From a virus (lineage: Duplodnaviria; Caudoviricetes), in IMG/VR virus record IMGVR_UViG_3300036852_000324, positions 1-52,070 of that record: a stretch of DNA of 52,070 nucleotides; one strand, 5' to 3'. The notes beneath the pieces were generated by a model. That model was given only the letters and a program-made list of their open reading frames with translations. It was not told where the DNA came from and ran no database searches. Shown piece by piece: positions 41,783-47,080 of the stretch (the stretch's first letter is position 1; each line of letters starts with the position of its first letter). The position numbers and the translations under genes were made by a program.

Positions 41783-43234
41783 GTGACCACACCGAACGAG
41801 TCCAACCCCTCAACGTCGCTCGCGCTTTCCGAGCGAAACCAAAAACTGCAACACGTGCGCGATGAGATGGCGCCCGGCGCGCGTCCTGGCGCGATCGTGC
41901 CGCGCTCCTTCGCGGAGCTGGAGCTGATGTGCAAAGCGCTGGCTGCCGCTGACCTTGCGCCCAAGCACCTGCGCGGAAAACCGACGGACATGGCGCTCGT
42001 CATCATGACCGGCGCCGAGGTCGGACTTCCCCCGATGGCCTCCCTGCGGCTTTATACGACCTGGGACGGCGTCCCCCGGCTGATGGCCGAGGGCATGCGA
42101 GCCATCATCCTGGCCCACCCTGAATGCGAGTGGTTCCGTCGGGTGCGCGGGGACGAGACGCAGAGCGTGTGGTCGACGAAGCGCCGCGGGCAGCCGGAGC
42201 AGACCGTTACGTGGACGATCGAGCGGGCCAAGCGCGCGGGCCTCCTCGGCAAGGAGAACTGGATGAAGTACCCCGAGGACATGCTTTCCGCGCGCGCGTC
42301 CATGCAGCTCGCTCGGCTCGAGTGGCCGGATGTCGTGGCCGGCATGGTGTCGCGCGAGGAGGCGTTCGACGGAGACTTCATCGACGTCACGGAGTCCCGG
42401 TCGAACGGGCAAGCATTCACGGCACCGATCGCCATGGCCCCGTCGGTCGACAGCATGGAACTTCGCGCTGCAGTGGCGCAGCTTCCGAAGGACGCGGGCC
42501 GGATTGTCGCGGAGCCGGCGCCGGTTCAGGTCCATGCCCTCGGGGTCGCTGGTCCGGTGGGAACCACGGCGCCGACGCCCCAGGAGGGCGTACCCGTCCA
42601 GAAGGGCAAGCGCGCCGCGACCCCTACTCCGCCGGCGACCTCGAGCGCACCCTCCGGTTCGCCGGCTCCCTCGTCGTCTCCTGCCTCAAGCGCCTCGGCG
42701 TCGACCCCGGCAGCTGCCGCATTGTCCGCGGCGACGGCGACACCTACGACATCGTCGCCGAGTAAGCTCGAATCGGCCATCGCGACGGTCGAGGCGAAGG
42801 ACCGATTCGGGCAGACGATCGCGGTGGACCCTACGCCGCCCGGTTCGAGCACGGGGCCTACGCCGTCGACCGGATCGGCATCACCATCGACCGGGAATCC
42901 TCCCTCTGGTGCCGCCCCGGGCCCCGCATCTGCGCCGACTGCCCCAACAACCTCTCTTGCTGTCGAAGACGAGGGCGGATTCGCCGATGACCCGGAGGAC
43001 TCGGCACCGCCGGTGGATGCCCAGGTTCCGCTCGGGAAGCTCCTCGTCGATTTCCACAAATGGCTGGCGGAATGCAAGACCCAGCGAGATCTCCAGGCCG
43101 GCTTCCCGAAGTGGAAGCTGTGGACCAAGGAGCGGGTCCAGCAGCACAACGACGACCGCTTCACCAAGGAGGGCGCCGGTACGGAGATGATGCAGGTTGC
43201 TTATGCGACCAGAAAGAGCCAGGTTCCGGCATGA
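41783..43234 (+). CDS. RecT/Redbeta-like single-strand annealing protein with long Pro/Ser/Thr linker
   Basis: PKHLRGKPTD..LVIMTGAEVGLPPMASL; WTIERAKRAGL..KENWMKYPEDML.AR. Confidence 0.75.
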   Translation: MTTPNESNPSTSLALSERNQKLQHVRDEMAPGARPGAIVPRSFAELELMCKALAAADLAPKHLRGKPTDMALVIMTGAEVGLPPMASLRLYTTWDGVPRLMAEGMRAIILAHPECEWFRRVRGDETQSVWSTKRRGQPEQTVTWTIERAKRAGLLGKENWMKYPEDMLSARASMQLARLEWPDVVAGMVSREEAFDGDFIDVTESRSNGQAFTAPIAMAPSVDSMELRAAVAQLPKDAGRIVAEPAPVQVHALGVAGPVGTTAPTPQEGVPVQKGKRAATPTPPATSSAPSGSPAPSSSPASSASASTPAAAALSAATATPTTSSPSKLESAIATVEAKDRFGQTIAVDPTPPGSSTGPTPSTGSASPSTGNPPSGAAPGPASAPTAPTTSLAVEDEGGFADDPEDSAPPVDAQVPLGKLLVDFHKWLAECKTQRDLQAGFPKWKLWTKERVQQHNDDRFTKEGAGTEMMQVAYATRKSQVPA

Positions 43235-43907: not shown

Positions 43908-43980
43908 GGGTGAAGATCTTCGGATACCTCGACGCCTGGCAGAGCGTGCGGAACCGCATGCGGCATCGGTGGAGCTGGGC

Positions 43981-45252
43981 GTGAGGATCACGGGATCTAA
44001 GGTCCACCGCGTATGGAAGTGCCAGGCCTCCGCCGTGCTGCCTCAGCTCGAGACCGATGATAGCCGGTTCGAGCCCGCAAGAAACAAGGGCAAGGCGATC
44101 CACGCGTTCCTGGAGACGGTAAAAACGCTGGGGAGATCCGGGGCGCTCGCCGCTGCCCCCGAGGATCTCCTGCCGCTGCTGGAGGCGCTGGATCTGGAAG
44201 ACCTCCCGGTCGGCCTGGCTTGCGAGGTCGCCTTCGCCTGGAACTGGCGAGACCACACCGCGCGCGAGCTGGGGCGAAGCCCGAATCTTCCGAGGCGAGT
44301 CGACGGCGGGGTCGACTACGACGCCATGGGCGTGAACTGGGGGTGCGAGATCCCGGGGACATACGACGTGGTGGGGGTACAGGGCGAGTTCGGCGAGGCC
44401 CAGACACGCGGATACCTCGGAGACTACAAGAGCGGGCATTCGAAGCATCCCGCGCCTGACATGTTCGGCCAGACCCTACTCGGCGCGCTGTGCGTACGCG
44501 CCGTGTACGGCTGCGACGCTGTGGTGGTCGAACTGATCCATATCCACGACAACGGCGGCCACTACAAGGCACGCCGGACCGTCAACGAGTGGGACCTCGA
44601 CATCTTCGCGCGCGAGATCGAGAACGCCATGTCCCCGTACGCTACTCCGACTCCGCGCGAGGGACCGCACTGCGACTACTGCCCGGCTTTCAAGGCGTGC
44701 CCCGCGAAGATCGGACTCGTTCGGAGCATCCCGGAGAAGCTTCTCGAGCTGGGTATCCGACCGGGGTCCGTCGTGGACGAGGCCGGCGTCGAGCAGAATG
44801 CTCTGGTCTTGACGCCGGGCATGCTGACGATCCGCAATGCCGCAGCGGCCTGGATGACGCTCGAGCTGATCGCGGACGTCGTGAACCGGGCCAAGGACGA
44901 GGTCATCGGAATCGCGGCCATGGAGGAGATCCCGTTGCCCGACGGACGAGTCATCGGTCGCCTGGTGACCGAGAAGCGGTCGGTCGACGGCAGGATCGCG
45001 GCCGAGGTCCTCGAGTCACGCTACGGACGGGAGACCAGGGACGAGTTCGTAGAGCCGCACGTGACCATGACCTCGTTGAGACAGGCGGCGGTCAAGAACA
45101 AGGCTGCTTCGGAGAAGATCGCGACCAAGAACAAGACGGGAGCCTTCGACAAGCTACTGCTCGCGATCGAGCAGAAGGGGGGCGTCCAGGTCAACGTGAC
45201 CGACGCGATCAGGCCCCACGTCCCGAAGAAAAAGCGGCTGACGGGCGGCTAG
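43981..45252 (+). CDS. PD-(D/E)XK exonuclease, Cas4/RecB-like with probable Fe-S cluster
   Basis: GKAIHAFLE, GTYD...GDYKSG, N-terminal Cys plus CDYCPAFKACP; partner of RecT-like gene. Confidence 0.8.
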   Translation: MRITGSKVHRVWKCQASAVLPQLETDDSRFEPARNKGKAIHAFLETVKTLGRSGALAAAPEDLLPLLEALDLEDLPVGLACEVAFAWNWRDHTARELGRSPNLPRRVDGGVDYDAMGVNWGCEIPGTYDVVGVQGEFGEAQTRGYLGDYKSGHSKHPAPDMFGQTLLGALCVRAVYGCDAVVVELIHIHDNGGHYKARRTVNEWDLDIFAREIENAMSPYATPTPREGPHCDYCPAFKACPAKIGLVRSIPEKLLELGIRPGSVVDEAGVEQNALVLTPGMLTIRNAAAAWMTLELIADVVNRAKDEVIGIAAMEEIPLPDGRVIGRLVTEKRSVDGRIAAEVLESRYGRETRDEFVEPHVTMTSLRQAAVKNKAASEKIATKNKTGAFDKLLLAIEQKGGVQVNVTDAIRPHVPKKKRLTGG

Positions 45253-45446
45253 CCGTCGATCCCGCAGCTCGATGCGCAGCTGCGCTGGATGCTGGTGTTG
45301 GATGGGCACCAGTAGACGATCGATTCGATCTCGGTATTGGTGACGACGTCCCCGTCGCCTCCGACCACTACTCTGAGCTGCGCCGCCGACAGGTCACGAA
45401 TCGTATCGCTCGTCAGGGCCAGCCTTGCCACCTTGGTCTTTTTCAT
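45249..45446 (-). CDS. RiPP (lanthipeptide-like) precursor peptide with double-glycine leader
   Basis: Leader MKKTKVARLALTSDTIRDLSAAQLRVVVGG; 35-aa core with 3 Cys and 8 Ser/Thr. Confidence 0.7.
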   Translation of the reverse strand: MKKTKVARLALTSDTIRDLSAAQLRVVVGGDGDVVTNTEIESIVYWCPSNTSIQRSCASSCGIDG

Positions 45447-45468
45447 GCGTCGGCATGTTGCCACCGAC

Positions 45469-45783
45469 CTACAGCATTGGTCGACAGCGCCATGCGGCAA
45501 TCTGATCCCGATAGGGAACGTCGAGACTCCTTAGCCAGATCGCGGACTTACCGACCGCCATAGGCGCGGGGCCGACCACCCAGTGCTCGCCGCGGGCCAG
45601 TCCATCTGCAATCTGGTCGACCGGGGCTCCGTTGTGCCACCCGATCAGTACAGGCCAGCGCTCGTAAATCGGTAGCGCCGGCGTTCGTAGCGTGTGGTCG
45701 TAGATCCGTGTATTGACCCGTGGGGCCTGAACTGGATCATCTTCGTAGTCGTATAGGACTGGCAGCCTGGACGTCCTAGCCAT
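45469..45783 (-). CDS. Hypothetical protein
   Basis: AAGGA SD; overlap with upstream gene. Confidence 0.5.
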   Translation of the reverse strand: MARTSRLPVLYDYEDDPVQAPRVNTRIYDHTLRTPALPIYERWPVLIGWHNGAPVDQIADGLARGEHWVVGPAPMAVGKSAIWLRSLDVPYRDQIAAWRCRPML

Positions 45784-45958
45784 TGGCCAATCCTTTCAGA
45801 TCCTGAGGGATTACAATCTCTGCGATTCGACGCGCCTCCATGGAGATCTGATTCATGGAATATTCAGAACCTGTGGACTTTAGTAAAATATGGCAAGCAT
45901 GAGATAGAAGGTCTGCGCACAAGCGAACCTCTGTTATCTGAGCTGGGGTTAGTTTCAT
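45776..45958 (-). CDS. Hypothetical protein (AT-richer than surroundings)
   Basis: AAGGAG SD, ATGA overlap. Confidence 0.55.
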   Translation of the reverse strand: MKLTPAQITEVRLCADLLSHACHILLKSTGSEYSMNQISMEARRIAEIVIPQDLKGLANG

Positions 45959-46164
45959 GGCGACTCCTTCGCGGCGCGGGCGTTGATGATGTCGACACAC
46001 CTCCGCCGGTTTGCTTGCTTGCCTCGTTCGGTCCGCGACCACAGCGCGCGATGGGCAATGACGTGAATCGGGATCCCCCGCCACAACTCGCGCCTGAAAT
46101 CAGACTGACCAAGATTCCGCACCATCGCGTCCGTCAGCGTCTCCGGTGTGACTGGCCTACCCAC
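45955..46164 (-). CDS. Hypothetical protein ending INARAAKE
   Basis: GGAGG SD, GTG start. Confidence 0.55.
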   Translation of the reverse strand: MGRPVTPETLTDAMVRNLGQSDFRRELWRGIPIHVIAHRALWSRTERGKQANRRRCVDIINARAAKESP

Positions 46165-46196
46165 GGTCCACCTCCTTCGCGGCGCGGGCGTTGATG
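45964..46196. repeat. Exact 25-bp direct repeat CTCCTTCGCGGCGCGGGCGTTGATG at 45964-45988 and 46172-46196
   Basis: Read directly; encodes INARAAKE plus the SD of the next gene. Confidence 0.9.
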
Positions 46197-46375
46197 CGAC
46201 CAGCCTCGGCGCCGATCTCATCTGCGATCGCGTCCATCCGATCTGCATCGGCACACAGCGACGCGATTCCCTCTGGGTCGTGTCCCTTGTCGTGGCGGTA
46301 CATGTCGGCGTGGTCGTAGATCGCCGATGCAACTGCCCCGGCGAGGTCGATCGGTATGGCGATCGTGACCTTCAC
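46157..46375 (-). CDS. Hypothetical protein ending INARAAKE
   Basis: GTGA overlap. Confidence 0.55.
   Translation of the reverse strand: MKVTIAIPIDLAGAVASAIYDHADMYRHDKGHDPEGIASLCADADRMDAIADEIGAEAGRINARAAKEVDRG

Positions 46376-46499: not shown

Positions 46500-46503
<4 letters not shown>
46372..46503 (-). CDS. 43-aa hypothetical protein
   Basis: GGAG SD, ATGA overlap. Confidence 0.45.

Positions 46504-47080
<577 letters not shown>

Follow-up and report, generated by a model that had tools for sequence, protein, structure and literature searches.

A conserved lanthipeptide-type precursor gene in a soil phage that lacks recognisable maturation genes

A soil phage of roughly 52 kb with a Mu-like tail (Duplodnaviria; Caudoviricetes; IMG/VR record IMGVR_UViG_3300036852_000324, 98% complete) carries a small, conserved accessory gene for a peptide built like the precursor of a class I lanthipeptide, while none of the enzymes required to mature such a peptide was found in this phage or in 22 other phage records. 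Maturation by the enzymes of the host is inferred from these observations and is not shown by them. The gene first came to attention through a sequence-only reading of the window, by which we mean the whole 52,070-nucleotide stretch of DNA that was analysed, and that reading proposed a lone phage-encoded RiPP precursor acting as a substrate for host enzymes. The observation itself is confirmed by our analysis, whereas the interpretation placed upon it is only partly supported.

Results

The precursor gene and its locus

The gene, its subdivisions and its immediate neighbours are as follows.

45249..45446 (-): precursor-peptide gene (65 aa + stop), P0001.
45357..45446 (-): leader, residues 1-30, MKKTKVARLALTSDTIRDLSAAQLRVVVGG, ending in Gly-Gly.
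45324..45356 (-): variable acidic linker, residues 31-41 (DGDVVTNTEIE).
45264..45323 (-): conserved core, residues 42-61, SIVYWCPSNTSIQRSCASSC.
45249..45252: CTAG in which the two convergent stop codons overlap.
43969..45252 (+): convergent PD-(D/E)XK exonuclease gene (PF12705, 29.2 bits).
45469..45783 (-): upstream co-directional gene (104 aa, unknown function).
45455..45463 (-): TGGCAACAT, a weak -10-like element.

The open reading frame translates exactly as the sequence-only reading had given it, with a 30-aa leader ending in GG followed by a 35-aa segment containing three Cys, although this segment holds nine Ser/Thr (six Ser and three Thr) and not the eight that had been counted. The overlap of the stop codons was likewise confirmed, the peptide stop (TAG, 45251-45249 on the - strand) and the exonuclease stop (TAG, 45250-45252 on the + strand) both lying inside the CTAG at 45249-45252. 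The -10-like element named in that reading lies at 45463-45455 and ends 8 nt before the ATG, but by our own comparison its hexamer CAACAT matches TATAAT at only 3 of 6 positions, and a sigma-70 scan of 44800-46200 reported neither this element nor any other - strand promoter, and no terminator. The co-directional 104-aa gene, which had not been mentioned, ends only 22 nt upstream of the ATG, so that co-transcription is at least as likely as transcription from an own promoter. As had been stated, there is no good Shine-Dalgarno sequence, the nearest being GGTGG, 14 nt upstream. Of the sequencing runs, one DNA run, from a soil metagenome that is probably the source sample, holds the stretch and no RNA run is listed as holding it.

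Several lines of evidence show that the frame is more than a chance occurrence. Its GC content by codon position is 0.50/0.50/0.82, like that of neighbouring real genes; the class I lanthipeptide leader model NF038153 (lant_leader_L1a, NCBIfam) matches it at 18.1 bits with E 2.5e-4 in a six-frame search of the 52-kb record; an in-frame degenerate leader pattern matches once in the window and 0 times in 100 shuffles; and conserved small homologues exist.

A small family with a strongly conserved core

An exhaustive search of 1,835,955,588 protein representatives gave seven hits with E <= 1e-3, of which six are peptides of 53-75 aa sharing both leader (MKK..KLxLxxETIRxL..EL..V.GG) and core (S[IV][IV]YWCxxNxSIxRSC..C), two of these being seen on independent contigs at the DNA level. 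P0003, a 312-aa repeat protein, was left out of the family alignment. Across the seven members, mean pairwise identity is 79% in the core, 46% in the leader and 20% in the linker, which also varies in length, and the residues S42, Y45, W46, C47, N50, S52, I53, R55, S56, C57 and C61 are invariant. Three Ser and three Cys are thus invariant in 7 of 7 members, placed so that (methyl)lanthionine rings could form, with two of the pairs spaced Ser-x4-Cys.

Other searches did not enlarge this family. A word-index homology search found only the query (1 of 1 candidate), scans of viral contigs with the peptide and with the family alignment gave 51 and 34 pattern matches respectively but no relatives, and tblastn against deposited phages and plasmids gave no match at E <= 1. 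In a metagenome scan seven loci passed tblastn, of which six (L009-L014) were discarded as spurious since they are identical AT-rich frames with no leader and no Cys pattern. The one other family member with usable flanks (locus L007) lies among an integrase, DUF5131, AAA_24 and PHROG genes, and its neighbour gene is 46-57% identical to genes of three relatives of this phage.

The leader

NF038153 is the only NCBIfam model to match the peptide, but the score of 17.6 bits by hmmscan, like that of the six-frame search, falls below the curated cut-off of 22 bits, and Pfam finds nothing. A model built from the leaders of the family scores 28.6 and 26.2 bits on two precursors of a bacterial genome (G170) which lie directly upstream of LanC (134.6 bits) and LanB (525 + 215 bits). 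The cluster precursors of G170 and of a second genome, G039, score 22.1-31.1 bits against NF038153. A resemblance between the core and those of the G170 LanAs (CPSxx[ST]xxxxC) is seen by eye only and is not supported by HMMER, which aligns the leader alone. Class I LanAs with an LxLxKx5L leader ending in GG, and with C39 proteases in their clusters, have been described (Walker et al., 2020; PMC7268733); L9, L11, L19 and G29-G30 of this motif are present here, but position 13 is Ser, and K/R is found there in only 4 of 7 family members. An Atlas cluster named "class I lanthipeptide leader domain" (score 0.86) provides no more than a lead.

In leaders of the double-glycine type the GG (or GA/GS) cut site is preceded by hydrophobic residues at -4, -7, -12 and -15, and these positions are occupied here by V27, L24, L19 and I16. 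At the aligned site the family shows GG in 5 of 7 members, GA in one and AG in one. The LxLx..GG leader type is not exclusive to lanthipeptides, however, and the leader alone therefore does not fix the RiPP class.

Absence of maturation and export genes

Six-frame searches of the window for LanC, Peptidase_C39 and the LanB N-terminal domain found nothing, and a Pfam sweep of 74 ORFs gave 26 families, all concerned with phage structure, replication, recombination or lysis, or HTH, in agreement with the earlier reading that maturation and export genes are absent. About two thirds of these ORFs have no family, so that an unrecognised enzyme cannot be excluded. LanC and C39 (PF03412) were each found in 0 of 18 and 0 of 5 phage records, and the LanB N-terminal domain in 0 of the eight tested, namely the present record (G000), its relatives G001 and G002, and five further viral records (G437-G441), while G170 and G039, used as positive controls, gave the expected hits. 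In G170 the full-length C39 transporter lies on a different contig from the LanA-LanC-LanB cluster, which makes maturation in trans plausible. The metagenome-assembled genome G003, which carries family member P0006, has no LanC, LanB or C39 hit, although its completeness is not given and the contig may be mis-binned.

Recurrence in other phages

The earlier reading had set as a test that related phages should carry a conserved leader with a variable core, and this pattern was found. The same leader type sits on different Cys/Ser/Thr-rich cores in G001, the nearest relative, and in G033, making 3 of 14 records scanned including the window's own, with the next best hit at E 0.3. In three related phages the leader-bearing peptide genes lie within about 1.7 kb of the 3' end of the exonuclease gene, which acts as a conserved anchor. 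The same leader type also occurs in five further viral records, two of them complete with terminal repeats, and the other phage peptides, those of G001 and G033 included, score 12.5-17.2 bits against NF038153. A hit in G002 (10.9 bits) was rejected, as it has no GG and lies in an 80-aa ORF of another kind. In all, the leader, GG and a short Cys/Ser/Thr-rich tail recur in at least eight distinct peptides in phages, each followed by a stop within 22-49 residues; a frame-shifted control pattern gave 0 plausible peptides among 3 hits, against 6 of 9 for the in-frame pattern.

Contrary to what had been expected, it is the core and not the leader that is the most conserved part within the peptide's own family. 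The gene is absent at this position in the nearest relatives and has no homologue in the 13 other records compared, whereas the flanking exonuclease has homologues in 11 of the 13, and the region g58-g71 is hypervariable. This is the behaviour of a variable accessory gene and not of a lineage-wide one. The 104-aa upstream gene occurs only in G000 and G001 among the 14 records, in both with an adjacent peptide gene. Three other homologues of it were found, one fused to a zf-HC2 domain; it has no Pfam or PHROG family, and its AF2 model (pLDDT 50.4) is unusable.

Searches bearing on the host

The suggestion of a myxobacterial or similar host rests on one weak Atlas lead only. The window has no tRNA genes, G002 is classed as a provirus but has phage genes at both ends, and TerL has roughly 200 relatives, but the closest cultured phages match it at only about 31% identity over 23% of its length. 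TerL relatives were found in 0 of 401 genomes of the phylum of G003, the one phylum sampled, but without a positive control, so that this shows little; NF038153-type precursors are rare in that phylum, being found in 2 of the 401 genomes.

Discussion

The analysis establishes that the gene is real, that it belongs to a small family with a leader of the class I lanthipeptide/double-glycine type (albeit below the curated cut-off), that recognisable maturation genes are absent from the phage, and that the arrangement recurs in other phages. Every biochemical step that follows, including modification, export and expression, as well as the existence of matching host enzymes, is inferred. In the explanation that we favour, with moderate confidence, the gene is an accessory ("moron"-like) gene with which the phage supplies only the substrate, the leader recruiting a host LanB/LanC pair. 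These enzymes would dehydrate Ser/Thr of the core and close thioether rings, for which the most economical pairing is S42-C47, S52-C57 and S56-C61; an odd number of Cys fits three thioethers better than disulfides. A host C39-peptidase ABC exporter would then cut after Gly29-Gly30 and export the product, and the strongly conserved core would act on a specific target outside the producing cell or in its envelope, as an antimicrobial or a signal. Against this view stand the sub-threshold leader score, the Ser replacing Lys in the leader motif, the absence of a strong ribosome-binding site or promoter, the rarity of such precursors in the phylum sampled, the lack of LanC, LanB and C39 hits in G003, and the fact that no host LanB, LanC or PCAT has been seen.

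A less likely alternative is that a host C39-ABC exporter cuts and exports the peptide without thioether modification, as a class II bacteriocin-like toxin or a signalling peptide, perhaps with one disulfide. The hydrophobic spacing of the GG leader would suit this, no modifying enzyme was found in the 23 phage records, some of the other phage-borne peptides (L093 and L099) have only one Cys, and unmodified GG-leader toxins, the bacteroidetocins, occur in Bacteroidetes (PMC6671954). However, the three invariant Ser alongside three Cys, two of the pairs with Ser-x4-Cys spacing, and the Cys that would be left unpaired argue against it, as does the finding that the best-matching leaders in a bacterial genome belong to LanC/LanB clusters, and no adjacent immunity gene is recognisable.

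It is doubtful that the peptide is an intracellular decoy or inhibitor whose leader occupies host LanB/LanC or the exporter and so blocks production of a lanthipeptide that defends against phage. Class I lanthipeptide clusters with anti-phage, intracellular action exist in Actinobacteria (Shomar et al., bioRxiv 10.1101/2024.06.26.600839), the gene lies in the early, small-gene region of the phage, and the same leader type appears on unrelated cores in other phages. A pure decoy needs only the leader, however, whereas here the core is far more conserved, and the published anti-phage core motif TxDxCxxxCxxxC is not present. Equally doubtful is a small phage protein whose N-terminus merely resembles a RiPP leader and which acts unmodified inside the cell, for example as a regulator or a Cys-based metal binder. 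All scores of the phage peptides against NF038153 are below the curated cut-off, and the fusion of one homologue of the neighbouring gene to an anti-sigma zf-HC2 domain hints at a regulatory neighbourhood, but the recurrence of leader, GG and short tail in phages and the frame-shifted control speak against it, while the pLDDT of 0.31 of the Atlas model fits an unstructured precursor and not a folded domain.

Modification by an unrecognised phage-encoded enzyme is more unlikely still. Most ORFs have no Pfam family, the 10 proteins tested with PHROGs around and including the peptide gave no hit, and the 104-aa gene accompanies a peptide gene in both records that have it; yet the ORFs of this accessory region are mostly short and are not shared between the three peptide-bearing relatives, G033 has the peptide but not the 104-aa gene, and the genes conserved across the lineage are structural or replicative. 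A chance ORF, as high-GC DNA produces in numbers and for which the lack of a strong ribosome-binding site or promoter might be invoked, is contradicted by the GC3 of 0.82 and the conservation data.

A broader possibility, which we put forward only tentatively, is that phages of several unrelated lineages carry substrate-only RiPP genes, each with a leader that plugs into the class I lanthipeptide and/or PCAT machinery of the host and a virus-specified core, so that the infected or lysogenic cell is reprogrammed to make and export a viral natural product. Such biosynthetic parasitism of a secondary-metabolite pathway was found nowhere in the literature searched. No paper was found on a lone lanthipeptide or RiPP precursor in a phage, although the precursor lists of Walker et al. 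(2020) and the core variants of Shomar et al. (2024) could hold related sequences, and PMC11118758 concerns host-encoded RiPPs. RiPP genome mining starts from the enzymes, so that precursors living apart from any cluster, and in viruses, are invisible to it. If phages do supply only the substrate, host lanthipeptide machinery is a resource that viruses exploit, the chemical output of a bacterium can change on infection or lysogeny without any new enzyme, and viral metagenomes hold a pool of novel core peptides, here a rare, tightly conserved SIVYWC..N.SI.RSC..C scaffold and at least seven other cores.

Comparison with known systems

The closest counterparts are class I lanthipeptide precursors with an LxLxKx5L...GG leader (NF038153), described for Bacteroidetes LanAs (PMC7268733) and represented here by the two LanAs of G170, with which the peptide shares leader length, the L-x-L-x-(K/R)-E-T-[IL]-R-x-L block apart from Ser at the K/R position, the (E)L...V-x-GG end and a short Cys/Ser/Thr-rich core. 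It differs in its score below the family cut-off, in a core that forms a new family, and in lying in a phage in which no LanB, LanC or C39 transporter was found, whereas the G170 precursors abut LanC and LanB. With the double-glycine leader peptides exported by C39-peptidase ABC transporters (PCAT/AMS), such as LahT substrates (PMC6363468), it shares the GG cut site and the spacing of hydrophobic residues, but no transporter gene was found nearby or elsewhere in the phage, and it remains a putative PCAT substrate only. Sublancin of the Bacillus subtilis SPbeta prophage is likewise a RiPP whose precursor is carried by a temperate phage, but SPbeta carries the modifying enzyme, exporter and immunity genes as well, while here only the precursor is phage-borne. 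Arbitrium AimP (PMC12360287) is a phage-encoded small pro-peptide that depends on host secretion and processing, as is inferred here, but it has an adjacent receptor gene, none being evident in this phage, and is not a Cys-rich, GG-leader peptide. The "lanthiphage" clusters of Actinobacteria (bioRxiv 10.1101/2024.06.26.600839), some of which lie on prophages or plasmids, also tie class I lanthipeptide chemistry to phage-host conflict; these are complete host or prophage clusters with LanB/LanC-like enzymes and a TxDxCxxxCxxxC core, whereas the gene presented here is a lone precursor with another core.

The ORF and the phage that carries it

The minus-strand ORF was confirmed in a virus record from IMG/VR of 52,070 bases that is estimated to be 98% complete, and it translates to the same 65 residues that had been given in the sequence-only reading, whose observation holds apart from one count and the weight placed on an upstream element. 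The features of the locus are as follows.

45249-45446, minus strand: the 65-aa peptide ORF
43969-45252, plus strand: convergent 427-aa gene for a PD-(D/E)XK nuclease (PF12705, 29.2 bits)
45249-45252: CTAG within which the stop codons of these two genes overlap
45469-45783, minus strand: co-directional 104-aa gene ending 22 nt upstream of the peptide gene

The GC content by codon position of the ORF is 0.50/0.50/0.82, which resembles that of the exonuclease (0.67/0.44/0.86) and is the signature of real coding sequence in this 64%-GC genome. The core contains nine Ser/Thr residues and not the eight that had been counted. The proposed upstream element TGGCAACAT lies at the position claimed for it but is weak, and a sigma-70 scan found no minus-strand promoter or terminator in 44800-46200, nor is there a good ribosome-binding site. 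As the co-directional 104-aa gene ends only 22 nt upstream, the peptide gene is probably the last gene of the leftward small-gene operon. One of the few homologues of the 104-aa gene, P0135, is fused to a zf-HC2 domain of the anti-sigma-factor type (PF13490), which hints at a regulatory role.

PHROG and Pfam hits identified a large terminase, a Mu-type portal and major head, tail sheath, tape measure and baseplate proteins, a primase/helicase, a ParB-like protein, RecT and the PD-(D/E)XK nuclease, a GH25 lysozyme and an HTH regulator. The morphogenesis genes are Mu-like (Portal_Mu, gpT, Gp36, Gp48, GpP, DNA_circ_N), although no transposase or integrase was seen, and replication and recombination are represented by the primase/helicase, RecT and the PD-(D/E)XK nuclease. 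The RecT-family protein (41783-43234, plus strand) carries a long Ala/Pro/Ser/Thr-rich low-complexity stretch of roughly 200 residues after the RecT domain. A 105-aa ORF at 46500-46817 (minus strand) is dominated by GDG(H/Y)G repeats and matches TrAA12-like at 32.1 bits, probably through low complexity, while the opposite strand reads long PVPV and PSP runs. Cultured phages are only remotely related, whereas TerL has more than 200 metagenomic relatives, many on contigs of about 52 kb. The only sequencing run that holds the region is a soil metagenome, probably the source sample.

A rare peptide family with a conserved core

An exhaustive phmmer search of 1,835,955,588 representative proteins returned seven hits at E <= 1e-3, of which six are peptides of 53-75 aa. 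The seventh, P0003, was set aside; it is a 312-aa protein made of six near-identical repeats of about 52 aa, each holding ESC[IV/F]CW(C/R)PFGS.IRKA, which faintly echoes the ESIVYWCPSNTSIQRS core, and it may be a translated DNA repeat. Alignment of the six peptides with that of the phage showed M1, L9, L24, S42, Y45, W46, C47, N50, S52, I53, R55, S56, C57 and C61 to be invariant across the seven. Mean pairwise identity is 46% in the leader (residues 1-30), 20% in the linker (residues 31-41) and 79% in the core (residues 42-61), so that the core is what selection holds most tightly. It contains three invariant Ser and three invariant Cys, with two of the pairs spaced Ser-x4-Cys. Since N50 and S52 are both invariant, the family also keeps an N-x-S sequon in the middle of the core (N50-T51-S52, 45291-45299, minus strand), which might reflect glycosylation or just ring chemistry.

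The leader and its relation to class I lanthipeptide precursors

A search of NCBIfam gave a single hit, NF038153 (lant_leader_L1a, class I lanthipeptide), which covers residues 1-30 and scores 17.6 bits against a cut-off of 22; in a six-frame search of the record it scores 18.1 bits (E 2.5e-4), while Pfam gave nothing. Class I LanAs have been reported with an LxLxKx5L leader that often ends in Gly-Gly and with a C39 protease in the cluster (Walker et al., 2020; PMC7268733). The phage leader has L9, L11, L19 and G29-G30, but presents a Ser at the Lys position.

To examine what this type of leader accompanies in a bacterial genome, we searched 401 genomes of the phylum of G003, the one bacterial assembly that holds a member of the peptide family and whose record title names Microbacterium sp. 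NF038153 passed its cut-off in only two of the 401, namely G170 and the unpublished G039. In G170 two precursors lie directly upstream of a LanC (PF05147, 134.6 bits) and a LanB (Lant_dehydr_N 525 bits, Lant_dehydr_C 215 bits), with an S8 protease nearby, while the full-length C39 transporter is on another contig. A profile built only from the seven family leaders scores these two bona fide LanAs at 28.6 and 26.2 bits. The leader is therefore of the kind used by class I lanthipeptide clusters, although it fails the curated threshold. A resemblance in the core (CPSxx[ST]xxxxC) is visible by eye but is not supported by HMMER, which aligns the leader only.

Absence of recognizable maturation genes

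Profile searches for LanC (PF05147) returned no hit in 18 related or compared phage records, nor in five further records, and the same result was obtained for Peptidase_C39 (PF03412), with 0 of 18 and 0 of 5. The LanB N-terminal domain (PF04738) was not found in the present record, in its nearest relative G001 or in the compared record G002, nor in the five further records, whereas G170 and G039 were detected as positive controls. A Pfam sweep of 74 ORFs of the window gave 26 families, none of which is a RiPP enzyme, ABC transporter or peptidase. Most of the ORFs have no family, however, and an unknown enzyme is not excluded.

Recurrence of the leader type in related and other phages

Twelve records have a TerL that is at least 55% identical to that of the phage. 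A presence/absence matrix showed a conserved structural and replication core together with a hypervariable small-gene region, g58-g71 and g1-g9, in which the peptide gene sits, and the peptide has no homologue in the 13 other records compared. The leader type nevertheless recurs. NF038153 also hits G001 (17.2 bits) and a second related phage, G033 (14.1 bits), and when the family-leader profile was searched against 10,628 six-frame pieces of 14 records it retrieved G033 (E 7.9e-5) and G001 (E 3.9e-4), with the next best hit at E 0.3. Both are short ORFs with a leader that ends in GG, followed by Cys/Ser/Thr-rich cores unrelated to that of the window.

The features of these two relatives are as follows.

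L002:9006-9212, plus strand, which is G001:1834-2040, minus strand: 68-aa peptide, MRKTTKLILDRETLRSLETVRMQEVRGG followed by a 40-aa core with 5 Cys; a lone gene in reverse orientation inside the early operon, next to the homologue of the 104-aa gene at 45469-45783
L002:7383-8087, minus strand (G001): 234-aa protein whose N-terminus looks by eye like a signal peptide, with only a faint tailspike-C match
L043:14698-14925, plus strand (G033): GTG-started 75-aa peptide with the same leader type and a 6-Cys core
L043:12371-14701, plus strand (G033): 776-aa ORF of no Pfam family with a Cys-rich C-terminus, the end of which is overlapped by the 75-aa peptide

All three peptide genes lie within about 1.7 kb of the 3' end of the exonuclease gene, and this spot is thus a hot-spot for such cargo. 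In G001 the slot directly after the exonuclease gene, where the window has its peptide, is taken by the 234-aa protein.

Beyond this lineage, an in-frame degenerate DNA pattern for the leader, which matches the window once and 0 times in 100 shuffles, matched nine stretches in IMG/VR. Six of these are short ORFs starting M-K-(K/R) with the leader, GG and a short Cys-containing tail, comprising that of G001 and those of five new records, G437, G438, G439, G440 and G441, whereas the remaining three lie in long ORFs and were rejected as spurious. The same pattern shifted one base out of frame gave three stretches, none of them plausible. G438 (89.9 kb) and G440 (58.4 kb) have terminal repeats and are rated 100% complete, and G439 is rated 97%. 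G440 carries a second such peptide, the two (L096:5344-5544, plus strand, and L103:1399-1566, minus strand) being about 20 kb apart, with one leader ending in GG and the other in AG. None of the five records has LanC, the LanB N-terminal domain or C39.

The family member P0006, found in G003 at locus L007, lies on a 21-kb contig with a phage integrase, DUF5131, AAA_24, a DNA methyltransferase, an exonuclease VIII-like gene and a PHROG-only gene. Its immediate neighbour is 46-57% identical to genes of G024, G025 and G027, three relatives of the present phage, and its AAA_24 gene is 47% identical to a gene of G440. The peptide is absent from the 20 relatives of G003 that were searched, in keeping with accessory status. 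A further locus, L008, is a 1.5-kb fragment and is uninformative. Both contexts with enough flank (2 of 2) are phage or phage-like. G003 itself shows no LanC, LanB or C39 hit, although its completeness is not given and the phage contig may be mis-binned.

Interpretation

The interpretation offered in the sequence-only reading, that the phage may supply only a substrate for host enzymes, is partly supported. Our analysis establishes a real, conserved, phage-borne gene with a leader of class I lanthipeptide/double-glycine type, a core with invariant Ser and Cys, no maturation genes detected in the phage, and recurrence of the same arrangement in other phages. It remains an inference that host LanB/LanC modify the core, that a host PCAT cuts after GG and exports the product, and that the product has a specific target. 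The odd number of Cys and the invariant Ser argue against a plain disulfide peptide, and the high conservation of the core argues against a leader-only decoy, but neither of these alternatives is excluded. As to the host, the Atlas match to Myxococcota scores below 0.9 and is only a lead.

Comparison with known systems

A full-text literature search found no report of a lone lanthipeptide or RiPP precursor in a phage. The nearest themes are host lanthipeptide clusters that defend against phage (10.1101/2024.06.26.600839) and phage pro-peptides such as arbitrium (PMC12360287). A third is provided by complete clusters borne on prophages, such as that of sublancin.
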